Assembly (NCBI GenBank): GCA_030605415.1
Contig: JAUWIJ010000006.1
Location: forward strand, 2,335-66,334
Direction of reading: 5' to 3'
Origin: an archaeon
Lineage (GTDB): Archaea; Nanobdellota; Nanobdellia; Pacearchaeales; GW2011-AR1
Length of the DNA stretch: 64,000 bases
In this document: one piece after another, positions 7,061 through 62,487 of the stretch
How positions within the stretch are numbered: position 1 is the stretch's first letter
How the letters are laid out: each line of letters starts with the position of its first letter
Notes under the pieces: generated by a model
What the model was told of the DNA's origin: nothing
What the model saw: only the letters and a program-made list of their open reading frames with translations
The model's database searches: none
Made by a program: the position numbers and the translations under genes

Positions 7061-7969
7061 ATGAATATCGAGCAGAAGGTTGCGGAGACTATTAAGAAAT
7101 ATAAATTACTTAAGAAGTCGGATAAGGTAGTTGTGGCTTTGTCGGGTGGGAAAGATTCGACGAGCGTTTTATATATATTGAAAAAATTGGGATATAACGT
7201 CGAGGGGCTGATGATTGATTTGTATTTGGGGCAGTGGTCAGAGATTCATAATAAAAATATGATTAAGTTTTGTAGGGAGATTGGTGTGCCGTTGACGATT
7301 GTTGATTTGAAAAAAGAGGTGGGGCAAAGGATTTGTTTTATCAAAACGGTTTTAAAAAAGCAAAAGAACTTGACGGGGTGCACGGTTTGTGGAATTATTA
7401 AGCGGTGGATTTTGAATAAGTGGGCGAAGAAGATGGGGGCGAATAAGTTGGTGACCGGGCATAATTTGGACGACGAGGCGCAAAATGTTTTGATGAATTT
7501 TTTGAAAGGAAATATTTTGCTCGGGGTGAATTCGTCGCCAGCGACAGGGGGGAGTGGGGACGGAGGGTCGGAGGTTCGGGGTTCGGGGTTCGGGAAAGTG
7601 GGAACAGGGAAGGGGGAACAGCCGACAGCCGACAGCCGACAGCCGACAGCCGAAGGTGGCTTCGTTCAGAGAATTAAGCCGTTGTTTTTTATTCCGGAAT
7701 CTGAAATTATGAAATATGCTAAGAAAAAAAAATTTGATATTTTGTATGATAAATGTCCGTGTGCGTTTGGGACGTACAGGGTTGAGACCAGAGATTGGAT
7801 GAGTAATATAAGTGATGGGGAAAAAATGACGATTGTTAAAGAATTCCAAAAATTAATTCCTAGATTAAGAGAAGGAAATTTTCGGGAAATTAAGAAATGT
7901 AAAAAATGCGGGGAGCCGTCGAGGGGCGAAGTTTGTAGTGCTTGTAAGATTTTTGAATGTCTGAAGTAA
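7061..7969 (+). CDS. PP-loop ATPase of the TtuA/NcsA/TtcA tRNA-thiolation type, carrying an in-frame low-complexity insert
   Basis: SGGKDS PP-loop, GHNLDDEAQ, and a C-terminal CxxC...CxxC zinc ribbon. About 40 codons of Gly/Ser-rich repeat-derived sequence lie in the middle. Confidence 0.75.
   Translation: MNIEQKVAETIKKYKLLKKSDKVVVALSGGKDSTSVLYILKKLGYNVEGLMIDLYLGQWSEIHNKNMIKFCREIGVPLTIVDLKKEVGQRICFIKTVLKKQKNLTGCTVCGIIKRWILNKWAKKMGANKLVTGHNLDDEAQNVLMNFLKGNILLGVNSSPATGGSGDGGSEVRGSGFGKVGTGKGEQPTADSRQPTAEGGFVQRIKPLFFIPESEIMKYAKKKKFDILYDKCPCAFGTYRVETRDWMSNISDGEKMTIVKEFQKLIPRLREGNFREIKKCKKCGEPSRGEVCSACKIFECLK
7536..7655 (+). repeat. G-rich low-complexity repeat inside the TtuA-like CDS (copy R2)
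   Basis: gggagtggggacggagggtcggaggttcggggttcggggttcggg...(gccgaca)x4, the same words as the intergenic copies. No stop codon, and the frame is preserved. Confidence 0.8.
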
Positions 7970-9605: not shown

Positions 9606-10001
9606 ATGAGTGTAAATATAAAAGAATATCAGGAGACGTGTAAGATGACGGCGAAGAAATGTGAGAATGATAAACTTGAGATTTGCAATTGGGGACTTGG
9701 GCTTGCGGGGGAAGCGGGTGATGTAGTGTCGTGTATTAAGAAAGTGGTGTTTCATGAAAATGAAATGATTAAAGATGGTATACGAGAAAATGTGGGAGAT
9801 ATGATGTGGTATACTGCGATGATTTGTAATTTTTATGATTGGAGTCTGGATGAAATTTTAGGTGAGAATTTAGAGAAGTTGGAAAAAAGATATGCAAGTG
9901 GCGGGTTTAGCTTGAAAGAAGCACAGAGAAAAGGAACGATGAAAAAATGGAGTGGGACAGATTCTGAAGTTAAAATTGTGGGAGGTGTGGAAAATGGTTA
10001 A
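9606..10001 (+). CDS. MazG-like nucleotide pyrophosphohydrolase
   Basis: GLAGEAGD...VGDMMWY...LEKLEKRY, the all-alpha NTP-PPase pattern. Confidence 0.75.
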   Translation: MSVNIKEYQETCKMTAKKCENDKLEICNWGLGLAGEAGDVVSCIKKVVFHENEMIKDGIRENVGDMMWYTAMICNFYDWSLDEILGENLEKLEKRYASGGFSLKEAQRKGTMKKWSGTDSEVKIVGGVENG

Positions 10002-13000
10002 AAAAATTAGAAAAAGAGACGGAAGCGTTGTGTTTTTTCAGAAGGATAAAATTGAGAATGCAATTTGGAAAGCTGTTCGTGCCGTCGGAGGGAAAGATAA
10101 AGAGCGTGCGAAGGAGATTGCGGGTTTGATTATTAAAAAATTGGACGAGACATATGGGGTGCATGGAATCCCGGAGGTTGAGGTTGTTCAGGATTTAATT
10201 GAGAAGATTTTAATTGAGGAAGGACATGCTCAGGTTGCTAAGGCGTTTATTCTTTATCGTAAAAGTCGTGAAGAGCTGAGAGATGTTAAGGGTCTGTTCG
10301 ATACAATTGAGGCGGTTGAAGATTACATTGGCTTGGATGATTGGATGGTTAAAGAAAATTCTAATATGGGGTATTCATTGCAGGGATTGAATAATTATAT
10401 TGCGACGAAAATTATCGCGAACTATTGGGTGAGAAGAATTTATCCTGAGGCGATTAGACGTGCTCATGAGACAGGGGATTTACATATTCATGATTTAGGC
10501 TGTTTGGGGGCGTATTGCTTTGATGATAAAACTATGATTTTAACGAAGCATGGTTGGAAATTTTTTAAGGATGTTATCAAAGGAGAAAGAGTCGCAACGA
10601 AAAATTTAAAGACGGGTGATATGGAATTTCAAGTCCCTTATGGCAGACAGGTTTATAATTATTCTGGAGAGATGTATTCTTTTGAAGGAAGAAGCGTGTC
10701 CTTGAATGTTACCCCAGAGCATCGGCTTTTAGTCAGGAGAAAACACAAGAAAACATGGGAGTTTGTTAATCCGACCGAGTTTAAATATGGCATGGAATTT
10801 GAAAAAAGAGTTTCATGGAAAGGGAAAACAGTGAAAATGTTTCAGATTCCAAATGTTAAAGGAGGTAACCGGAAGAAAGATATCGAAAAATTTAAAGTGG
10901 AAGATTATGTAGAATTTATGGGATGGTATCTTTCCGAGGGTTCAGTTTATGAGCCGAACAAGGGAGATTATAGGATAAGCATTGCGCAGTTAAGAAAAAA
11001 TTATAGAGAAGAAATTTTGAAATTATTGGATAAGATGAAACTAAATTATAATAATCAATCTAAATTCAATATTCATCTTCATTCGAAAGATCTATTTTAT
11101 TATCTAAAAGGTTTTGGAGTATCTGGTGTAAAATATGTTCCGAAAAATATTAAGGAATTGGATTCTAAAATGATTAAGAAGTTTTTAGTTGCGTTGTTTA
11201 AGGGAGATGGTTCATTTTCTGTAAATGGAAAGTTGTATAAATATTATACAAAATCTAAGAGATTGGCAGAGGATGTTGTTGAGTGTTTGTTGAAAATTGG
11301 TATTTGTGGCACGATTACAAGGAGAAAGGGGATGAATATTTATATGGTATCCGTTGAAAATAACCACCTTACTCCTGTTTATAATAAGAAAGCTGTGAAG
11401 AAAAAATATAGTGGAAAGGTTTATGATTTTTCAGTTAAAAATGGAACACTGATTGTTATGAGAGAGGGGAAAGTTGTTGTTTCGGGAAATTGCGTTGGAT
11501 GGGATTTAAAGGATTTGTTAACGGTTGGATTTAAAGGGGTTAAGGGCAAGGTTGAATCAAAGCCACCTAAACATTTGAGAACGGTGTTGGGACAGATGGT
11601 TAATTTCTTTTATACTTTGCAGGGTGAAACTGCGGGAGCTCAGGCGTTTTCAAATTTTGATACTTTGCTTGCGCCGTTTGTGAGGTATGATAATTTGGAT
11701 TATGAACAAGTTAAACAGGCCATGCAGGAATTTGTTTTTAATTTGGCGGTGCCGACGAGGGTGGGATTTCAGTGCATGTCGGAAGATACTGAAATTTTGA
11801 CACCAAATGGTTGGGCAGGTTATAACGATTTAAAAAAGGGAGATGTAATAAAAACTTTTAATATTGAAAAAGGAATAATTGAAGATAAGCTTATTAAGAA
11901 ACTTTTTGCTAGAAAATATAATGGAATTATGTATAATTTGAAAAATAGAATTCAGGACCAGTTGATTTCTCCAGGGCATAGAGTTGTTAGAAGAAAATTT
12001 TGTGGGAATTATGTTTTGGAGAAAATTGAAGATGTTAAAAAAATAAAGTCGCCATTTATAGTTCCAATTGCCGGGATTAATTCCAAGAAAGATTCAAAAA
12101 TAAGTGACGAAGAAATAAAACTTCTTGCGTGGATAATTAGCGAAGGAACGATTGAAAATTATACGACGCATAGACATTGCAAACGAATTACGATATATCA
12201 ATCTAAATTAAAGAATTTTGAAAAATATAAAGAGATAATAAATTTGTTAAAAAAATTCAAGTTAAATTTCAACGAGAGAGATTCTTGTCCGGCTTTTGGT
12301 GATTCTGTTAAAATGATAAGAATGGATGCCAAATCTTCGAGGGTTATTTATAAAATGATGGGGTCAAACGAAAGTGTTAATTTTATACCGAAGAAGTTAA
12401 CGAATATGAGTAAGAAACAATCAAGATTATTTTTGGATACTTACATCAGGGGTGATGGTTTTGAAGGTTGTAAGATTGCTACAACAAATGAAAATATTTT
12501 GGATGGATTACAACAAATTTCTGTTAATTCAGAATATGGATTTAGTGTTTTAACCAGAAAGCCGACCATTGGAAAAAAGCTGATTTATGTTTTGAGGTTG
12601 ATTAAACATAAAGATACATATATTCAAAAAGTGGAAGAAGTGAATTATCAGGGAATCATTTGGTGTCCTAATACCGATAATGAAACGGTCGTAGCCAGAA
12701 GAAACGGGAAAGTATTTATTACAGGGAATACTCCGTTTACAAACATTACAATGGATTTAGATGTGCCTGACTATATGGTGAAGGAACATGTGATTGCGGG
12801 AGGTCAGCCACAGATGGAAACTTATGGAGATTTTCAGAAAGAAATGAATATGATTAATAAGGCGTTTGCAGAATGTATGCTTGAAGGTGATGCGACGGGA
12901 CAGGTTTTTACTTTTCCGATTCCGACTTATAATATTACAAAAGATTTCGATTTTGATAATCCTGAATATGATTTAATATGGGAAATGACGGCGAAGTATG

Positions 13001-14121
13001 GTATTCCTTATTTTTCAAATTTTGTTAATTCTGAGATGAAACCGGAAGATGTGCGAAGTATGTGTTGTCGGTTAAAAATAGATAATAGAGAATTGAGAAA
13101 AAGGGGCGGTGGTTTGTTTGGTTCAAATCCATTAACAGGAAGTATTGGAGTTGTGACAATAAATATGGGGAGATTGGGTTATGTGTCGACGGATGAGGAT
13201 GATTTTATGGCGAGGTTGGATGGGTTGATGGAGTTGGCGAAAGAGAGTTTGGAGATTAAGAGAAAAACGATTGAGAACTTTACAGAGATGGGACTTTATC
13301 CTTATACGAAATTTTATCTCAGGCAGGTTTATCAAAGATTTGGTGAATATTGGAAAAATCATTTTGCGACGATTGGTCTTTTGGGGATGAATGAAGCGGT
13401 GACGAATTTTTTGCCCGGGGAAAATATTACGACAAAGAAAGGTAAAGATTTTACGTTGAAGATTTTGAATTTTATGAGGGATAGGCTGACAGAGTATCAA
13501 GAAGAGACTGAAAATATTTATAATTTAGAGGCAACGCCGGGCGAGGGAACAACTTATAGATTTGCTCGGATGGATAAAAAAAGGTTTGGTAGAATTTTGG
13601 TTGCAAATGAAGATGCGTATCAGAAAGGTGCGAAACCATATTATACAAATAGCACTCAACTTCCTGTAAATTTTACTGATGATGTTTTTGAGGCATTGGA
13701 TTTGCAGGATGAGTTACAATGTAAATACAGCGGAGGTACGGTTTTTCATACTTTTATTGGTGAGAAGATGACTAAAGATTCAGTTAAGAAGATGGTTAAG
13801 AAAATTTCTAATAATTATCATTTGCCGTATTTTACAATTTCGCCGACGTTTTCGATTTGTCCGATTCATGGATATCTGAGTGGGGAACATGAATATTGTC
13901 CGAAGTGTGATGCTGAAATAGCTGAGGTAGAAGTTGCTCCGGTTTCTGTTGCTGATGATATTGTTGAAGCAGAAAAGAGAGATGAAAAAATTAGCGAGGT
14001 TGAAAGTTTTGGAGTGATAAAAAATCAAAAGCCAGAAGTACTAGAAGTTGAAAAAGTGGCGATGAAAGGAAATAATGTGTCGGATTTAAAACTAAATTTA
14101 AGAGGTGATACTAATGAATAG
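9994..14121 (+). CDS. nrdD: Anaerobic (class III) ribonucleoside-triphosphate reductase body, with two inteins; glycyl-radical motif not in this frame
   Basis: Start trimmed to MVKKIRKRDG (ATP-cone). NrdD blocks are HIHDLG..AYC|VGWDL, VPTRVGFQ|TPFTNIT and a C-terminal CPIH...CPKC zinc site. The frame ends in ~65 non-conserved codons. Confidence 0.9.
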   Translation: MVKKIRKRDGSVVFFQKDKIENAIWKAVRAVGGKDKERAKEIAGLIIKKLDETYGVHGIPEVEVVQDLIEKILIEEGHAQVAKAFILYRKSREELRDVKGLFDTIEAVEDYIGLDDWMVKENSNMGYSLQGLNNYIATKIIANYWVRRIYPEAIRRAHETGDLHIHDLGCLGAYCFDDKTMILTKHGWKFFKDVIKGERVATKNLKTGDMEFQVPYGRQVYNYSGEMYSFEGRSVSLNVTPEHRLLVRRKHKKTWEFVNPTEFKYGMEFEKRVSWKGKTVKMFQIPNVKGGNRKKDIEKFKVEDYVEFMGWYLSEGSVYEPNKGDYRISIAQLRKNYREEILKLLDKMKLNYNNQSKFNIHLHSKDLFYYLKGFGVSGVKYVPKNIKELDSKMIKKFLVALFKGDGSFSVNGKLYKYYTKSKRLAEDVVECLLKIGICGTITRRKGMNIYMVSVENNHLTPVYNKKAVKKKYSGKVYDFSVKNGTLIVMREGKVVVSGNCVGWDLKDLLTVGFKGVKGKVESKPPKHLRTVLGQMVNFFYTLQGETAGAQAFSNFDTLLAPFVRYDNLDYEQVKQAMQEFVFNLAVPTRVGFQCMSEDTEILTPNGWAGYNDLKKGDVIKTFNIEKGIIEDKLIKKLFARKYNGIMYNLKNRIQDQLISPGHRVVRRKFCGNYVLEKIEDVKKIKSPFIVPIAGINSKKDSKISDEEIKLLAWIISEGTIENYTTHRHCKRITIYQSKLKNFEKYKEIINLLKKFKLNFNERDSCPAFGDSVKMIRMDAKSSRVIYKMMGSNESVNFIPKKLTNMSKKQSRLFLDTYIRGDGFEGCKIATTNENILDGLQQISVNSEYGFSVLTRKPTIGKKLIYVLRLIKHKDTYIQKVEEVNYQGIIWCPNTDNETVVARRNGKVFITGNTPFTNITMDLDVPDYMVKEHVIAGGQPQMETYGDFQKEMNMINKAFAECMLEGDATGQVFTFPIPTYNITKDFDFDNPEYDLIWEMTAKYGIPYFSNFVNSEMKPEDVRSMCCRLKIDNRELRKRGGGLFGSNPLTGSIGVVTINMGRLGYVSTDEDDFMARLDGLMELAKESLEIKRKTIENFTEMGLYPYTKFYLRQVYQRFGEYWKNHFATIGLLGMNEAVTNFLPGENITTKKGKDFTLKILNFMRDRLTEYQEETENIYNLEATPGEGTTYRFARMDKKRFGRILVANEDAYQKGAKPYYTNSTQLPVNFTDDVFEALDLQDELQCKYSGGTVFHTFIGEKMTKDSVKKMVKKISNNYHLPYFTISPTFSICPIHGYLSGEHEYCPKCDAEIAEVEVAPVSVADDIVEAEKRDEKISEVESFGVIKNQKPEVLEVEKVAMKGNNVSDLKLNLRGDTNE
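10516..11490 (+). mobile_element. Intein 1 in NrdD (325 aa, LAGLIDADG homing endonuclease type)
   Basis: Starts CFDDKTMIL, has block B TPEH and LAGLIDADG-like motifs (FMGWYLSEGS, LFKGDGSF), ends VVSGN, and is followed by a +1 Cys. Removal restores GAY|CVGWDL. Confidence 0.85.
11773..12729 (+). mobile_element. Intein 2 in NrdD (319 aa, LAGLIDADG homing endonuclease type)
   Basis: Starts CMSEDTEIL, has block B SPGH and motifs LLAWIISEGT and YIRGDGF, ends FITGN, and is followed by a +1 Thr. Removal restores VGFQ|TPFTNIT. Confidence 0.85.
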
Positions 14122-14136: not shown

Positions 14137-14272
14137 GTGGAGTAGGGTTTGTGGTTATCTTCGACCGACTGCCCGATGGAATGAAGGCAAATTAGCAGAG
14201 TTCAAAGATAGGAAGATGTTTAGCGCGACGAGAACTGAGAACTCGGCGGACAGGATACCCTCACAGATATAA
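14114..14272 (+). CDS. NrdD glycyl-radical domain as a separate 52-aa ORF (or a frameshifted nrdD 3' end)
   Basis: MNRTKCEVWSRVCGYLRPTARWNEGKLAEFKDRKMF carries the RVxGY glycyl-radical motif. Its ATG overlaps the nrdD stop (ATGAATAG). The last ~16 codons read into repeat R3. Confidence 0.55.
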   Translation: MNRTKCEVWSRVCGYLRPTARWNEGKLAEFKDRKMFSATRTENSADRIPSQI

Positions 14273-14580
14273 GGGAGAGATGGGTTGGGGCACACTGAGT
14301 CCAGAACTGAGAACTCCAACGAGAACTTAGATCTCAGAACTGAGAACTCCAACGAGAACTCAGATACCCTCACAAATATAAGAGAAAAACAGGTTGGGGC
14401 ACGCCGACTCAGATCTCAGAACTCAGAGGGGAAAGGGGGCAACCGACAACCGACGGGGCAGAAACTCAGAGGGGGAACGGGGAAGCGGGGGTGGCTCTAA
14501 GAGCGAATGAAATGAACGGTCTGAGTTCTCAGAGCAAAGCGGTCTAAGTTCTCAGAGTGAAACGACCTGAGTTCTGAAGG
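14226..14580 (+). repeat. G-rich composite repeat (copy R3) with two M modules
   Basis: gagaactgagaactc words, two accctcaca...ttggggcac modules (14257-14293 and 14366-14402), a G-run core, and then complementary words (gagttctcag) ending in gtgaaacgacct. Confidence 0.85.
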
Positions 14581-14615
14581 AGAAATGAGAAACAAAAAAT
14601 GAGAATAATGTTAAA

Positions 14616-34003: not shown

Positions 34004-34100
34004 TGGGTGTTCGGTGTTCGGTGTTCGGGTGTTCGGGGCTTGGCGAGTTGAAGGTTGGGGGGAGGTTTTAGGATGGGAGGAATGGGCTGTAGTGGTTTTG
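34004..34100 (+). repeat. G-rich low-complexity repeat (copy R6)
   Basis: gggtgttcggtgttcggtgttcgggtgttcgggg...ggttggggggagg, following the rps12 stop after a short hairpin spacer (~18 nt). Confidence 0.75.
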
Positions 34101-41725: not shown

Positions 41726-42292
41726 ATGTCAATACAGGTTAGAGAAAAAACTATTGAGGAAATTGAAAAGAAGTTGGGTGAGATGGGTACCGATTTGAAT
41801 AAGATTGATTATCTGGAATCGGTGTTGAAGAGCGCGAGTTTTAGTTTTGAGATTAAGCGGTTTTTGTGCAAGGAGTTGTCTGAGTTGTACGAGGAGCGGA
41901 AGATGTTTGAGCGGGCGGCGCGGGCGATGTCTAATAAGGCGGGGATGGAAATTACATTTAAAGATAAGATTGATAGTTATGTGACGGCGGCGGAATTGTT
42001 TTCGAGGATTGGGAAGGTTGACGACGCTGATGAAATGTTTGTCAGGGCTATGAGAGATGCGAACAGCGAGCAGAAGACAAAAGTTAAGTTGGCACGGAAG
42101 AATATTTATTTGATTTCGGCTAAGGAGTTGGAATCTAAGGGCAAGAGGGCGTCGGCGATTAAGTTTTATGAGAAATTAATTAAGATGAATCTTGAGGATG
42201 TTGAGAAAAATGAGATTAAGGAAAAATTATTAAGGACATATAAAGCACTTGGTTTATTTAGAGAGGCGCGACTGTTGGGAAGTAGTGAGTAG
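41726..42292 (+). CDS. Hypothetical helical (TPR-like?) protein
   Basis: 188 aa, helical repeat character. The last codons lie in repeat R8. Confidence 0.45.
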   Translation: MSIQVREKTIEEIEKKLGEMGTDLNKIDYLESVLKSASFSFEIKRFLCKELSELYEERKMFERAARAMSNKAGMEITFKDKIDSYVTAAELFSRIGKVDDADEMFVRAMRDANSEQKTKVKLARKNIYLISAKELESKGKRASAIKFYEKLIKMNLEDVEKNEIKEKLLRTYKALGLFREARLLGSSE

Positions 42293-42400
42293 TTGGTGGT
42301 GAGTAGTAAGTAGTGGGGACGGGGGACTACAAACTACCAACTACTAACTACCAACTACTAACTACCAACTACAAACTGAGAGTGGGAGTAGTTTGAGAGA
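42278..42400 (+). repeat. Composite repeat (copy R8), clear inverted-arm architecture
   Basis: gtagttggtggtgagtagtaagtagt, then ggggacggggg, then actacaaactaccaactactaactaccaactactaactaccaactac. The arms are approximately complementary. Confidence 0.85.
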
Positions 42401-44360: not shown

Positions 44361-44834
44361 ATGAAGGGTGAGGAGACGGGCAGGTATTTTAAATGGAAGT
44401 GGTTTGTGATTTTGGTAGTATTAGTGATTTTGGTTTGGGGAATTTGGATGTTGTTTTTTAGTTATGCGCATTGTGAGACCTGGGAATGTTTTAATGCTCA
44501 TTTGAAGGATTGTGATAGAGTGAGGTTTATTGGGGAAGTGGACATGATTTTTAAATATACCATTGAGGGGGATTCTAATGGGGAGTGTGAAGTTGTGGTG
44601 CAGTTGTTGCAGGGTGAGTTAAATAATCGGGATTTGATAAAATTAGAGATGCAAAAAATGACCTGTATGTTGCCAAGGGGTGTTGTGATGGTTCCTGAGA
44701 GTGATATTGGAAATTGTCATGGAATGTTAAAAGAGGGGTTGCAGGATTTAGTGATTGAGAAGTTGCATACGTATCTTGTTCAGAATTTAGGGAAATTGAA
44801 TTTAGAGGTATTGGATGTGCCGGATGGGAGTTAA
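44361..44834 (+). CDS. Hypothetical membrane-anchored protein
   Basis: N-terminal TM helix and a Cys-containing ectodomain. Confidence 0.45.
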   Translation: MKGEETGRYFKWKWFVILVVLVILVWGIWMLFFSYAHCETWECFNAHLKDCDRVRFIGEVDMIFKYTIEGDSNGECEVVVQLLQGELNNRDLIKLEMQKMTCMLPRGVVMVPESDIGNCHGMLKEGLQDLVIEKLHTYLVQNLGKLNLEVLDVPDGS

Positions 44835-44835
44835 G

Positions 44836-44968
44836 AGTTTATCAGCTTCGCTGATAGTTGGGGGTTCGGTGTTGGGAGTTGGGAGTGGGGGCAGGGAGTG
44901 GGGGCAGGGAACGGGGAAGCGGGGAGCTACTAACTCCTAACTACCAACTCCTGACTGGCGAGGGGGGA
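44836..44968 (+). repeat. Composite repeat (copy R9) with a strong G4-type core
   Basis: Left end tcagcttcgctgatag, then gttgggagttgggagt words, then gggagtgggggcagggagtgggggcagggaacggggaagcgggg, then ctactaactcctaactaccaactcc. Confidence 0.85.
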
Positions 44969-47449: not shown

Positions 47450-47672
47450 GTGAATTTAGGTCAGCTTCGCTGATAGTTGGGAGTTGGGGGTTTGGTGTTG
47501 GGAGTTAGGGAAGCGGGCACAGTGAGATAGTTTTTGGTTGTCATCTCACGTGCCAAGGGCGGTTCTAAGAGCGAATGAAATGAGCGGTCTGAGTTCTCAG
47601 TTCTGAGTTCTACGTTTCGGGAATAAAACGACCTATATTTTCAAACTAATTATTTTAGAAATGTTTTTCTGT
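47450..47672 (+). repeat. Composite repeat (copy R10) plus smc-3'-end-like tail
   Basis: Left end aatttaggtcagcttcgctgatag. Right part is ctaagagcgaatgaaatgagcggtctgagttctcag...aaaacgacct followed by ttcaaactaattattttagaaatgttttt. Confidence 0.85.
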
Positions 47673-52557: not shown

Positions 52558-52960
52558 ATTTTTAAGCTAACTATTTTTTAGTAAATTTAGGTCAGCTTCG
52601 CTTCCAAAATTCAGAACTCAGAACTCAGTACTCAGAACTTAGACGAGATCTCAGATCTCAGTACTCAGAACTTAGAGGGGGAACTGGGAACTGGGGAGCG
52701 GGGAACTGGGGGTAGGGAGCGGGGGGCGGGGGCAGGGGGGCGTGCCCCCGGGGCAGGGCTTTCGGGAGTGGTAGTTCTAAGTTCTCAGAGCGAAGCGGTC
52801 TCAGTTCTAAGAGCGAATGAAATGAGCGGTCTCAGTTCTGGAACAAAGAGCAAAGCGGTCTCAGTTCTCAGAGTGGAACGGTCTCAGTTCTAAGTTCTAG
52901 GAGAAGTGAAACGACCTAAACTTTTAAACTAACTATTTTTTAGATGTTTTCCTGCATTAT
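52558..52960 (+). repeat. Largest composite repeat (copy R11) plus smc-3'-end-like tail
   Basis: Left end aatttaggtcagcttcgct, cagaactcag words, an ~80-nt G-run core, complementary ctcagttctaag words, gtgaaacgacct, and then cttttaaactaactattttttagatgttttcctgcat. Confidence 0.85.
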
Positions 52961-58591: not shown

Positions 58592-59182
58592 ATGAAAAAT
58601 TCCAATTCCTATGTTCTCGCGGGAGTGTTCTTTATTTTTTTGCAAATTATTGTGATAATCAGAAATTTGTATTTTGATTTTGCGTATTTCTTTTGGTTCT
58701 GCGATTTCGTGCCGATAATTTTGGCCCTGGCATTTTTCCTAAAAAAAGATTACGTCATAAAAGGGATTGTTAACATTGGATTATTTCCCCAAATTGTTTA
58801 TATATTTGGCTTTATTATAAAAATATTTTTGGGAATTTCTTTTCTGAGTGAGGTGGAATTACTTTTGACTTATAATATATTTATAATTTTTTCATCCGTT
58901 TTTGTTCATCTAGCTACGATAATTGCATTTGGTTTTACATACAAAGTTAGGCCGACGAAAGAGACGCTTGTTTATTCTTTGCTGGGATTGGTTTTGATTT
59001 ATCTTGTGATGATTTTTTTTACAGCTCCTGTAGATGATATCAATTATGTCTTTTTGTTAAGTAACTTTTTCGGAGTTGATGTGTTTTCGGTTTTTTGGAT
59101 TCCTATAACTTTTTTACTTGTAGTCCTCCCGACTCAGGGATTTCAATATTTAATTTATAGGTATTTTGGGAAACATAATTAG
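58592..59182 (+). CDS. Hypothetical polytopic membrane protein
   Basis: Start trimmed to MKNSNSY because the track ORF start overlaps the tRNA. About 6 hydrophobic helices. Confidence 0.5.
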   Translation: MKNSNSYVLAGVFFIFLQIIVIIRNLYFDFAYFFWFCDFVPIILALAFFLKKDYVIKGIVNIGLFPQIVYIFGFIIKIFLGISFLSEVELLLTYNIFIIFSSVFVHLATIIAFGFTYKVRPTKETLVYSLLGLVLIYLVMIFFTAPVDDINYVFLLSNFFGVDVFSVFWIPITFLLVVLPTQGFQYLIYRYFGKHN

Positions 59183-59255
59183 GGATTTGGGGTTAGGTAT
59201 TTGGGATTTGAGGGGAAGGGAACGGGACAAGATAGGGATTGGGAGCGGGGATTTG
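59180..59255 (+). repeat. G-rich low-complexity repeat (copy R13)
   Basis: gggatttggggttaggtatttgggatttgaggggaagggaacgggacaagatagggattgggagcgggg begins on the stop codon. Confidence 0.8.
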
Positions 59256-59259
59256 AAAA

Positions 59260-59539
59260 GATGCCTGCACTATTCACAATTCACACCTCGTAAAATTATC
59301 TTTTGAATTGTGTTTTACTCGGAGCAAATTGTTCAGCCAAACGCCCGTTTGTTCACTTACCGCCAACTTTTTATATTGTTATTTCTAATTGTTTTCATGT
59401 GGGGATGCCTACGTTATTCACAATTTGCATTTCGCAATCATATTAAAATTCGTTGGATTACTCAAAGCGAATTGCTCAGCCAAACGCCCGTTTGTTCACT
59501 CCGATAATTTTATAACCTTTATTCCTTGCATAATTTTAT
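59260..59539 (-). repeat. Two inverted cassette-A copies, each preceded by a tRNA-Leu 5' fragment
   Basis: gatgcc plus unit at 59266-59357, and atgtggggatgcc plus unit at 59410-59500. The units are the reverse complement of cassette A, and each contains ccaaacgccc resembling the tRNA-Leu D loop. Confidence 0.75.
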
Positions 59540-60627: not shown

Positions 60628-62487
60628 ATGAAGTTAGCGATTATTCACAAGGAGAAATGTAAGCCGACGATTTGCGGGCATGAGTGCAAGAAATATTGTC
60701 CCGTCGAGAAAAAGGAAGCGGATAGTTGTGTCACTATCGATGGCAAAGCGAAGATTGATGAGAACGCGTGTGTTGGGTGTGCAATTTGCGTGAAGCGGTG
60801 TCCGTTTGGTGCGATTGATATTGTTAATTTGCCGTCGGTGAGCGAGAAGGATATGGTGCATAGGTATGGAGCGAATGGATTTGCGTTGTATGGTTTGCCG
60901 ACGCCGAAAGATGGTTCGGTTCTTGGGTTGCTTGGAAGAAATGGAATTGGAAAGTCTACAGCTGTGAAAATTTTAGCTGGAACAGAGAAGATAAATTTAG
61001 GAAAAAAGTTTGCAAGCGATGAGGACATTAAAAAATTTTTTAAGGGTAATGAACTTTTGAGATATTTTGAGGGCTTGGATAAAAAAAAGGTTTCGTATAA
61101 GCCACAGAACTTGTCGCAGTTAGCGGTTGATGTGGGAGTTATGAAACTATTGTTACAGCGAGTTGTTTCTAATGCACCCAAGGGTGTACCTCCTGCCCAG
61201 ATGGCATCTGCTAACGCAGACAAGGTCGGCAAGATTAAACAATTGGCTGAAAGACTTGGCATCTCGTATGTTCTTGGAAATCGAATGGATAAATTATCGG
61301 GCGGCGAGTTACAAAAGGTTGCAATTTTAGCGGCGAGTTTAGGAGAGGCAAGTATTTATTTTTTTGATGAGCCTTTGGCATTTTTGGATATTGGAGAAAG
61401 ATTGAGGGTTTCGGATTTTATTAAGGAGATTGCAAAAGGTAAGTCTGTTATTGTTGTCGAGCACGATTTGTTGATTTTGGATTATTTGACGGATTATTTG
61501 AATGTTTTTTTTGGGGGGCAGGGGGCGTTCGGAATTGTATCGGGAGTTAAAAGTTCGGGGGTTGGAGTTAATGCTTATTTAAATGGGTTTTTGAAAGAGG
61601 AAAATATGCGGATTCGAGATAAAGTTTTGAGTTTTAATTTTACAAAAAATCCTGCTATGTCTGGAGCAAAGATTGCTGAGTGGCCTGCTTTTGATTTGAA
61701 ATTCGGGTTGGGTTTTGAATTAAAGGTTAATGCTGGCGAAATTCATGAGAACCATGTGATTGGAATTTTGGGAAAGAATGGAACTGGGAAGACTTCGTTT
61801 GTGCGGGCACTGGCGGGAGAAATTAAGGTTCGCAAGTTCGGAGTTACCCTCACAAATTCAAAACAAAAATTGGTTGGGGCAGACTCTCGGAGTTCGGAGT
61901 TTGAAGAGGGAGAAAAGGAAAGGCTGGATTTGGATTTGAGCATTTCATATAAACCTCAATATTTATTTAGCGAAAGCGAAGAGATTGTTAAGGACATTAT
62001 ATTTAGGGAAAAGATAAATAAAAAATTGTCGTCGGTGTTTAATCTTGGGGTTTTAGTTGGAAAGAAATTGAAGGAGTTATCGGGCGGCGAGTTGCAGAGA
62101 TTTAGTGTTGCGAGGTGCCTGGCGAAAGATGCGGATGTTTATTTAATTGATGAGCCGTCGGCGTATTTGGATGTTGAGGAAAGGATTTCGGTTGCGAAGG
62201 CGATTAAGGATATTATGGTTGAAAAAGGAAAGACGGCTTTTGTTGTAGACCACGATTTGTTGCTTGTTTCATATTTGGCGGATTCGATTATTAATTTCTC
62301 GGGAGAGAGTGGAGTTCGTGGGAAGGCATCGGAAATTAGTGGATTCGAGGAAGGGATTTCTGAATTATTGAAGAGTTTGGATGTTACTCTAAGGAAGGAT
62401 AAAGAAAGTGGCAGACCGAGGATTAATAAAAGAGGTTCGGTTTTGGACAGGGAGCAGAAAGCCAAGGGAAAGTGGGCTGTGTTTTAG
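60628..62487 (+). CDS. abce1: ABCE1 (RNase L inhibitor-type ribosome recycling ATPase) with an in-frame repeat insert
   Basis: N-terminal 2x[4Fe-4S] Cys motifs, two ABC domains (GRNGIGKST, GKNGTGKTS, 2x LSGGELQ), and extra codons between LAG and SYKPQ. Confidence 0.9.
   Translation: MKLAIIHKEKCKPTICGHECKKYCPVEKKEADSCVTIDGKAKIDENACVGCAICVKRCPFGAIDIVNLPSVSEKDMVHRYGANGFALYGLPTPKDGSVLGLLGRNGIGKSTAVKILAGTEKINLGKKFASDEDIKKFFKGNELLRYFEGLDKKKVSYKPQNLSQLAVDVGVMKLLLQRVVSNAPKGVPPAQMASANADKVGKIKQLAERLGISYVLGNRMDKLSGGELQKVAILAASLGEASIYFFDEPLAFLDIGERLRVSDFIKEIAKGKSVIVVEHDLLILDYLTDYLNVFFGGQGAFGIVSGVKSSGVGVNAYLNGFLKEENMRIRDKVLSFNFTKNPAMSGAKIAEWPAFDLKFGLGFELKVNAGEIHENHVIGILGKNGTGKTSFVRALAGEIKVRKFGVTLTNSKQKLVGADSRSSEFEEGEKERLDLDLSISYKPQYLFSESEEIVKDIIFREKINKKLSSVFNLGVLVGKKLKELSGGELQRFSVARCLAKDADVYLIDEPSAYLDVEERISVAKAIKDIMVEKGKTAFVVDHDLLLVSYLADSIINFSGESGVRGKASEISGFEEGISELLKSLDVTLRKDKESGRPRINKRGSVLDREQKAKGKWAVF
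61831..61908 (+). repeat. M-module-containing insert inside ABCE1 (copy R14)
   Basis: gttcggagtt, then accctcacaaattcaaaacaaaaattggttggggcag, then actctcgga, then gttcggagtt. Encodes VRKFGVTLTNSKQKLVGADSRSSEFE in frame. Confidence 0.75.

Follow-up and report, generated by a model that had tools for sequence, protein, structure and literature searches.

In a 64-kb stretch of a Pacearchaeota genome (DPANN archaea), here called the window, the gene for a TtuA/NcsA-type tRNA sulfurtransferase carries a G-rich segment of about 31 codons that most of its homologues lack. A preliminary description, made from the DNA letters, took this segment for a repeat-derived insert kept in frame inside a conserved PP-loop ATPase of tRNA thiolation and compared it with the Rickettsia palindromic elements (RPEs). 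Our analysis supports that interpretation and makes it generalisable, as a repeat-derived, tolerated loop within a lineage-wide, RPE-like phenomenon built on heptamer arrays. We consider it likely that the segment is a predicted-translated, in-frame member of a lineage-wide class of small Pacearchaeota repeat elements. The evidence spans the clade, with one permissive loop struck many times and one element found in different genes, at different sites and in different frames.

The host gene and the limits of the insert

The open reading frame (ORF) at 7061–7969 on the plus strand runs uninterrupted for 302 amino acids, with no stop codon and no frameshift, and its product contains LMNFLKGNILLGVNSSPATGGSGDGGSEVRGSGFGKVGTGKGEQPTADSRQPTAEGGFVQRIKPLFFIPESEI and LMNFLKGNILLGVNSSPATGGSGDGGSEVRGSGFGKVGTGKGEQPTADSRQPTAEGGFVQRIKPLFF. 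The 50 nt upstream are intergenic and face a divergent gene. The protein matches the PP-loop family in Pfam (PF01171, 1.9e-13), and its best NCBIfam matches are Pyrococcus TtuA (3.9e-54) and NcsA (7.3e-33). Scores of 183.8 bits for TtuA (cut-off 450) and 114 for NcsA (cut-off 500) lie far under the equivalog cut-offs at which U54 or U34 specificity would be assigned. Against the Protein Data Bank (PDB), the solved TtuA PH0300 is matched (7e-45) in two stretches, query 3–152 on chain 30–173 and query 198–298 on chain 186–290, so PH0300 has about 13 residues where the host protein has about 46. An AlphaFold2 model built from an alignment of 26 relatives was matched by Foldseek to TtuA 5mkp (TM 0.74, E 1.5e-20) and NcsA 6scy (TM 0.70). 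The SGGKDS PP-loop motif (S28, G29, G30, K31, D32, S33) is invariant in 26 aligned sequences, as are C107, C110 and C232 (the [4Fe-4S] cluster ligands, in a CxxC and at one distal Cys), which align with the PH0300 cysteines, and C280, C283, C292 and C295 of a C-terminal CxxC...CxxC zinc finger. The N-terminal zinc finger of PH0300 is missing: the host protein begins at PH0300 residue 30, and this short form of about 270 aa is common to all 120 homologues (the best 120, with 63–99% identity and a modal length of 270 aa). The named homologues come from metagenome-assembled genomes of 'Candidatus Pacearchaeota' and 'Nanoarchaeota'. Judged by these matches and residues, the gene is a TtuA/NcsA-type sulfurtransferase at family level, with U54/U34 specificity left unassigned. 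The gene and its insert comprise the following features.

7061–7969, plus strand: host gene, TtuA/NcsA-type [4Fe-4S] PP-loop tRNA sulfurtransferase by Pfam, NCBIfam, PDB and Foldseek matches
7529–7549, plus strand: native left flank N157–G163 (NSSPATG), ending in the junction G-run; motif in all homologues
7550–7660, plus strand: variable loop, residues 164–200, 37 aa, from alignment with homologues and AlphaFold2
7661–7690, plus strand: native right flank FVQRIKPLFF, with F201, Q203, R204, K206, P207 and F209 invariant
7545–7655, plus strand: heptamer-structured G-rich tract, from period-7 self-identity and stops by frame
7557–7594, plus strand: left arm, GGGTCGGA x2.9, then TCGGGGT/GGTTCGG x3.7 (Tandem Repeats Finder, TRF); peptide SEVRGSGFG
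7600–7621, plus strand: centre, GGGAACA GGGAAGG GGGAACA (TRF, local alignment), like the GGGAACGGGGAAGCGGGG of intergenic elements at 14470 and 44908
7618–7653, plus strand: right arm, ACAGCCG/GCCGACA x5.1 (TRF); peptide QPTADSRQPTAE

The usual loop of the homologues reads NSSPATG-GKxVxG-FAQRVKPLFF, and in 95 of the 120 G163 is separated from F201 by 6–8 residues. The left flank keeps P160 and G163 in all of the 26 sequences and S158 and T162 in nearly all. The preliminary description had counted about 40 in-frame codons. Their frame was correctly read, but the 120-homologue alignment shortens the extra material to about 31 codons (93 nt, give or take a few codons at the boundaries), since SSPATG(G) and the closing G(G) are native. 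Its placement of an in-frame insert in a PP-loop tRNA-thiolation ATPase holds, given the intact ORF, the PF01171 and TtuA/NcsA matches and the insert-free state of most homologues. The motifs on both sides are also intact, as it had stated: the NSSPATG and FVQRIKP flanks, the PP-loop and the cysteines are conserved in the 26 sequences. Structure prediction had been suggested as a check on whether a surface loop forms; in the AlphaFold2 model, residues 166–199 are coil with a pLDDT below 50, set between helix 136–149 and strand 203–205 of a confident core (pLDDT 80–96). What is predicted is a disordered loop on an intact TtuA fold, which looks as a tolerated surface loop would. An independent assembly of this genome (L003) has the same insert, and a third assembly (L020) has a diverged version of it; the insert is no assembly artefact.

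The DNA of the tract is organised in heptamers. Period-7 self-identity over 7545–7655 is 0.71 where shuffles give 0.33 ± 0.04 (z 9.3), and harmonics appear at periods 14 and 21; the codon signature of ordinary coding sequence is missing, since period 3 reaches only z −0.2. TRF resolves 7568–7653 into TCGGGGT x3.7, GGGAACA x3.1 and ACAGCCG x5.1. The words quoted in the preliminary description are present: GGTTCGGGGTTCGGG at 7573 and 7580, the GCCGACA repeats at 7621–7648 (0 expected by chance for both) and the GGGAACA array. GCCGACAGCCGACA occurs three times (0 expected). Nine runs of at least three G lie in the tract, whose sense strand has a canonical G-quadruplex motif at 7578–7602. Left-arm and right-arm units pair at 4/7 bases (UCGG:CCGA), once per unit, and the minimum free energy fold of the insert RNA is one long interrupted hairpin (−39.3 kcal/mol, z −2.37; reached by 3/200 shuffles). 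As three heptamers make seven codons and are read in all three phases, the peptide takes the form QPTADSR-QPTAE and VRGSGFG. The lack of stops and frameshifts had been put forward as a sign of maintenance. It is real, but the lack of stops is uninformative, for the tract has zero stop codons in all six frames and only a length divisible by three therefore needs selection. A 7-nt unit is not a multiple of three, so the frame is kept only in 21-nt steps.

Likeness of the insert to intergenic heptamer elements

Of the tandem periods 3–12, period 7 alone gives rise to arrays in the window: self-identity of at least 0.7 is reached in 100 segments of 35 nt, and in none at any other period. Over the whole length of the window, TRF finds 17 arrays of period 7, 14 or 21. 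Composite heptamer elements lie at about 2690–2830, 14230–14610, 17720–17950, 20326–20482, 34004–34070, 42281–42395, 44840–44960, 47455–47640, 52585–52920 and 59181–59260. Most stand directly after, or overlap, the stop codon of a plus-strand gene; those at 42281, 44840, 34004, 59181 and 52585 overlap the stop or lie 10–140 nt past it. Typically, a heptamer arm rich in G and T is joined through a G-rich centre (GGGAACN, GGGAAGC or GGGGAGC) to a complementary arm rich in A and C. Six of them are described here.

44840–44960, plus strand: intergenic mosaic of (AGTTGGG)n, G-rich centre and (CCAACTN)n forming a hairpin, after the stop of gene 44361–44834 (local alignment, fold)
52585–52920, plus strand: intergenic mosaic of (TCAGAAC)n, a 107-nt G-rich heptamer tract and (GTTCTGA)-type arrays (TRF, local alignment)
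14230–14610, plus strand: intergenic mosaic of two 36-nt modules (14257, 14366), (CAACCGA)2 and GGGAACGGGGAAGCGGGG (TRF, module search)
42281–42395, plus strand: heptamer-array hairpin overlapping the stop of gene 41726–42292 (TRF, fold)
34004–34070, plus strand: intergenic (GGTGTTC)x4.3 array, 21 nt past a stop codon (TRF, local alignment)
20326–20482, plus strand: element with (CGGTATT)x3.4 and a 36-nt module (20364–20399; module search), flanked by a 48-bp direct duplication

The TtuA insert shares the layout of left arm, G-rich centre and right arm with these elements. Its best local match is the element at 44840–44960 (74% over 50 nt, E 0.005), and its top five local alignments (65–90% over 21–65 nt, E 0.005–0.12) all fall on the plus strand in intergenic heptamer elements, with match sites at 44857–44918, 34009–34029, 2681–2745 and 52678–52706. 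The summed score of these five is 137 versus 102 ± 6 and was matched by 0/300 dinucleotide-preserving shuffles of the insert; the best single score was equalled in 5/300. Hairpins are predicted for the intergenic elements at 44845–44962 (z −2.83) and 42275–42395 (z −4.04). The 9–11-mers of the insert match the window at chance level only, and the insert therefore copies no window element. The likeness is weak but specific, one of common grammar and architecture beyond composition, and not that of a transposed copy. The earlier statement that insert and intergenic elements use the same words stands, on the shuffle tests, as such a similarity; as a statement of copying it fails, with no exact match above 11 nt.

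All ten canonical G-quadruplex motifs of the window are on the plus strand, seven of them intergenic. Elements in the opposite, C-rich orientation were sought in the window and none was found; as it has few minus-strand genes, transcription and replication bias are not separable there. Strand asymmetry in the window is very strong, with a coding-strand GC skew of about +0.3 to +0.6 in plus-strand genes and near 0 in minus-strand genes, and with all heptamer mosaic elements on the plus strand. An Rfam scan returned just four tRNAs, and the elements are covered by no known RNA family. Three intergenic elements (47455–47640, 52585–52920 and 14495–14575) share on their 3' side a further conserved module, ggttctaagagcgaatgaaatgagcggtctcagttct, likewise with no Rfam match.

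The same TtuA loop in related genomes

The DNA of the homologues was taken from a GTDB scan and contig look-ups, and inserted alleles were found by tblastn, which carries no ORF-calling bias. Of the 120 homologues, 25 carry inserts in this loop, of 12–58 aa and unrelated sequence, while empty alleles among L008–L023 have 5–8 loop codons. Several inserts are visibly heptameric: the loop of L004 reads (GGGATTC)2(GGAGGTC)3, that of L007 TCAGAAC TTAGAAC TGGGAAC TTAAAAC, and that of L006 TCAGAAC TGAGAAC plus about 100 nt. Heptamers of the relatives' TtuA inserts recur in the intergenic elements of the window at 14300 and 52611. In a neighbour-joining tree computed without the loop, the 25 inserted homologues are scattered, most beside empty sisters, and comprise at least ten unrelated insert types. 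Homologues with a linker of unrelated nucleotide sequence had been named beforehand as evidence against a repeat-derived insert. Such linkers do, literally, occur, but they are themselves repeat-derived, and the idea is therefore extended rather than refuted.

Two comparisons show the loop in the course of change. In L020 (protein 80% identical) the insert is homologous to that of the window, with a right array of (CCGACCA)4 in place of (CCGACAG)5 and a loop of 43 aa versus 36, a difference of exactly 21 nt, or three heptamers and seven codons. This is the pattern that would be expected of slippage in place under frame selection. L098 and L099 are 99.3% identical over 4.2 kb, yet only one of the two has a 48-nt (GGGGTAT)n insert in the TtuA loop (L098:1605-2465, L099:2038-2850). 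Of the 32 mismatches in the gene, 24 fall no more than 60 nt from the insert, and the native flank in this pair is recast as G-rich, heptamer-like codons, with the amino acids kept similar. A 1325-nt match in L047, at first sight a large insert, proved to span two neighbouring genes that are read in different frames.

Each of the eight inserted alleles that were observed separately keeps the frame (approx. 1.5e-4 if the frame were free), which argues against a spliced element. That the segment is untranslated, as a bulge-helix-bulge (BHB) intron, an intein-like element or an assembly artefact, is highly implausible. A tRNA-splicing endonuclease gene does lie nearby in the same genome (in the Pfam list of L003), and the insert is able to fold as a hairpin. 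Against this, beyond the frame statistics, length differences are multiples of three (21 nt between orthologues), the predicted fold has no BHB geometry at the junctions, 31 aa is too short for an intein, intein motifs are absent and three independent assemblies hold the insert. Taken with the intact catalytic residues, the frame statistics and the independent assemblies led us to reject readings of the segment as intron, intein or artefact and of the gene as a pseudogene.

The recurrence of extensions across the clade, the frame kept in two diverged orthologues and the G-quadruplex motif on the sense strand could also point to an adaptive loop, in which a Gly/Ser/Thr/Pro-rich segment is retained for a function, for instance by tethering tRNA or a partner that carries sulfur in a flexible way, or as a G-quadruplex regulator in the mRNA. 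We regard this as improbable. There is no amino-acid conservation between alleles, whose inserts are unrelated in sequence and length (12–58 aa); 95/120 homologues are insert-free; and codon periodicity is missing, the peptide being a three-frame read-out of heptamers.

A more credible alternative, although one we doubt, is that the insert is a purely local simple-sequence expansion, produced by slippage from native G-rich loop codons (e.g. TCGGAGGT, Ser-Glu-Val), with the intergenic likeness reflecting a shared mutational bias towards heptamers. Uninserted relatives encode GSEVEG at this position, and repeats of SEV, written as (TCGGAAG)n or (GGAGGTC)n, are seen in several alleles with an insert; the array units are found at the TtuA locus alone; the right-arm unit has changed in concert in L020; and relatives with loop heptamers have few in their flanks. 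Local growth leaves other features unaccounted for: the three-part palindromic layout and the GGGAAC/GGGAAG centre match the intergenic elements beyond composition, the GCCGACA unit of the right arm has no native seed, and the dispersed modules in other alleles of the loop cannot form locally.

A dispersed 36-nt module and a second host gene, ABCE1

In the sister genome P0002 (locus L001, 77% identity) the TtuA loop carries a 147-nt insert that contains the module ACCCTCAC-N19-GTTGGGGCA. This 36-nt module has five copies in the window (14257–14292, 14366–14401, 17828–17863, 20364–20399 and 61846–61881; 0 expected) and seven in L001–L003; all of them (5/5 and 7/7) are on the sense strand and embedded in heptamers. 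It has an A/T-rich core (e.g. ATATAAGG) that resembles an archaeal TATA box. The copy at 61846 sits in frame in a second conserved gene.

60628–62487, plus strand: second host gene, ABCE1/RLI, 619 aa versus 573 in the modal homologue (homologue comparison)
61159–61227, plus strand: ABCE1 insert A, 23 aa, RVVSNAPKGVPPAQMASANADKV, which most homologues are without (homologue comparison)
61819–61902, plus strand: ABCE1 insert B, about 28 extra residues past the second Walker A helix, with TCGGAGT heptamers around the 36-nt module (PDB alignment, module search)

With insert B, the second Walker A helix is separated from EEGEK by 28 residues, versus one in Pyrococcus (PDB 3bk7/3j15), and the DNA of the insert is predicted to fold as a hairpin (z −2.56). 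The stretch 61836–61895 is almost the same DNA as a part of the TtuA insert of L001, and the two are read in different frames, as GVTLTNSKQK versus ELPSQIQNK. Sharing between the two genes extends to other genomes. At least eight insertion sites are seen in 120 Pacearchaeota ABCE1 homologues, a peptide family [AV]ARGIPSKEGTxVPSSSG occupies four ABCE1 sites and the TtuA loop of other genomes, and a DNA core of 22–25 nt, GGCATACCCTCTAAGGAGGGAAC, is 96–100% identical between the TtuA loop (L095) and two ABCE1 sites (L096, L097) in three genomes. Among some 35 window genes comparable with orthologues, window-specific inserts of at least 15 aa are found in TtuA and ABCE1 only. A doubled 43-aa probe of the ARGIPSKEGT element gave no candidates, and the 33-aa ABCE1 insert had 0 matches among 1.84 billion representatives.

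A small dispersed family with conserved ends and constant orientation (5/5 in the window, 7/7 at related loci on the sense strand), with one core found in different genes, is also what classical transposition of MITEs (transposable elements of the miniature inverted-repeat kind) would give: a non-autonomous element, mobilised by a transposase encoded elsewhere, that landed in frame by chance. We think this unlikely for the TtuA insert. Direct reading of the TtuA and ABCE1 junctions shows neither terminal inverted repeats nor short target-site duplications, though no dedicated search was made; the window holds no near-identical copy of the insert; the sole flank duplication seen, at 48 bp, is atypical; and no transposase was found among the ten proteins scanned with Pfam in this 64-kb part of the genome.

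Origin and maintenance of the insert

If the segment is, as we favour, an in-frame member of a lineage-wide repeat class, it would have arisen in the common ancestor of the lineage that comprises the window, L020 and L001, at a G-run natively encoding Thr-Gly-Gly. Entry could have been by insertion or by template switching between G-rich heptamer tracts, followed by evolution in place through replication slippage. It would persist through the tolerance of the loop for extra residues, as a neutral or slightly deleterious passenger with no added function, and its sense-strand G-quadruplex or hairpin may reduce translation of the TtuA mRNA.

Several observations weigh against this reading. The window contains no exact copy of the TtuA insert, the longest exact matches being 10–11 nt, and the GCCGACA unit is unique to the TtuA locus, so transposition of a pre-formed element is unsupported for this insert. 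The 11 JGI metagenome contigs matching GGGAACNNCCGACNNCCGACNNCCGAC, at the junction of centre and right arm, are all unrelated and mostly from high-GC bacteria, with no Pacearchaeota donor among them. The flanks of about 20 kb around L004 and L007, which have heptamers in the TtuA loop, are almost without other heptamer arrays, which favours growth in place over import. A period-7 census (strict and TRF) of 83 related loci likewise found the relatives' flanks array-poor; heptamer abundance is therefore uneven across the clade. The significance of the TtuA-insert hairpin is modest (z −2.4; 3/200 shuffles). Finally, we infer the translation, surface exposure and neutrality of the insert, and the loop may have a functional role.

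Clues to the mechanism come from the junctions. In inserted alleles the TtuA junction is a G-run (ACN GGG GGN). The window and L003 align gap-free over 14,406 nt with only four differences, at 7534, 7535, 7550 and 7551, all at the left junction of the insert (GT>CG and GG>AA, giving S159A and G164K). The 157-nt element at 20326–20482 is preceded by GGGGAAGGGGAC and flanked by the 48-bp direct duplication (20277–20325 and 20483–20531, 45/48 identical), which derives from the 5' end of the next gene, that of the kinase/dCMP-deaminase. The upstream copy of this duplication opens a 69-aa ORF that runs into the element. We infer that G-run junction, flank duplication and junction-clustered substitutions fit error-prone template switching or patch import at structured G-rich DNA better than cut-and-paste transposition. 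More speculatively, Pacearchaeota might possess a strand-specific, transposase-free process by which permissive loops of essential genes (TtuA, ABCE1) continually receive, in their G-rich codons, short repeat mosaics without stops and nested mini-modules. One example would be template switching, associated with forks or with transcription, from one G-rich heptamer tract to another where these form hairpins or G-quadruplexes. The process would be marked by a halo of substitutions in the flanks and, occasionally, by their duplication. If real, such a process would be a previously unrecognised generator of variation in archaeal protein loops and would link heptamer simple sequence repeats (SSRs) mechanistically with RPE-like coding insertions.

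Comparison with known repeat systems

In-frame 'selfish' repeats have so far been treated largely as a Rickettsia peculiarity, and heptamer or G-quadruplex repeats as intergenic traits of some bacteria; the two are joined here in one DPANN archaeon. In a MITE review (PMC10969869), RPEs (Ogata et al. 2000, 2002) are the outstanding case of in-frame repeats; for archaea the review names MITEs in Sulfolobus, Halobacterium, Haloquadratum and a few others only, none of them an in-frame case. By its summary of RPEs, the two systems share small repeats, weakly palindromic in the TtuA insert, in frame in conserved functional genes, several families, copies outside genes, a preserved host fold and small host-associated genomes. 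RPEs are 100–150 bp long and well conserved in sequence and peptide, whereas the elements described here measure 30–150 nt and the TtuA insert is a heptamer-array mosaic without a near-identical copy. In contrast to RPEs, the 36-nt module takes one reading frame in TtuA and another in ABCE1, and the host is an archaeon. The TtuA insert is RPE-like in being in frame, missing from most homologues and set between intact host motifs; it has no dispersed family of recognisable copies (only 65–90% local matches over 21–65 nt), which is seen for the 36-nt module and, in relatives, for the GGCATACCCTCTAAGGAGGG core. The analogy drawn at the outset has gained strength from other repeat elements in the same loop, the module in ABCE1 and one core at three sites in two genes. 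Literature searches on DPANN/Pacearchaeota repeats, archaeal heptanucleotide repeats and RPE-like archaeal elements returned nothing relevant. Judged by these negative searches, such an insert may be undescribed in archaea, as had been supposed.

G-rich heptameric SSRs are known from Xanthomonas and Nostoc, with the units GGGNATC and GGGGA(C/T)T; within ORFs, they are reported to be under-represented on the coding strand (Rehm et al. 2015, PMC4692102), a paper that also cites a Calothrix report of cyanobacterial heptamers. The repeats of the window resemble these SSRs in their 7-nt units of G3-4N3-4 type, and the TtuA insert has tandem 7-nt units and at least four G-tracts (nine), as do such G-quadruplex repeats, the quadruplex being predicted from the motif. 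The intergenic elements of the window fit the published description and the TtuA insert does not, because it lies mid-ORF. Unlike the bacterial SSRs, it combines three different units in an imperfect palindrome, in frame in an essential-type gene of an archaeon. Cyanobacterial heptamers are reportedly called STRR, a name said to go back to Mazel in 1990, and in Nostoc, small dispersed repeats (SDRs) nested in tandem heptamer arrays were reportedly described by Elhai and colleagues in Genome Research in 2008. Like the SDRs, the module ACCCTCAC-N19-GTTGGGGCA is no longer than 40 nt and has conserved ends, and each copy lies inside heptamer arrays. It has no sequence relationship to them, also occurs in ORFs, in two frames, and its mobility is deduced from distribution only. 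AT-rich eukaryotic parasites such as Plasmodium have low-complexity, repeat-derived inserts in conserved proteins. There, as here, slippage-prone DNA gives disordered, fast-evolving loops in conserved enzymes; here, in contrast, the unit is 7 nt and the same DNA grammar also fills intergenic hairpins.

Through these loops one can study, in a tractable natural setting, how small genomes cope with repeat-driven inserts in essential enzymes and perhaps put them to use, and why the unit is 7 nt. The loops also call for caution in DPANN protein annotation and phylogenomics, because length-variable loops are repeat-derived rather than homologous.

Other observations

The NrdD gene of the window (anaerobic ribonucleotide reductase, 9994–14121) encodes 1375 aa with a LAGLIDADG_3 domain between two NRDD segments, and this is an intein; in the relative L001, NrdD is 729 aa long and intein-free. 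Beyond the Pacearchaeota, heptamer-array hairpins of the form (X)n-GGGAAC-(X')n were seen in many unrelated, mostly high-GC bacterial contigs (L084–L094), for example (GGTTGTC)n-GGGGGAACG-(ACCGACA)n in L087, which suggests that such hairpins are a widespread, little-described class.

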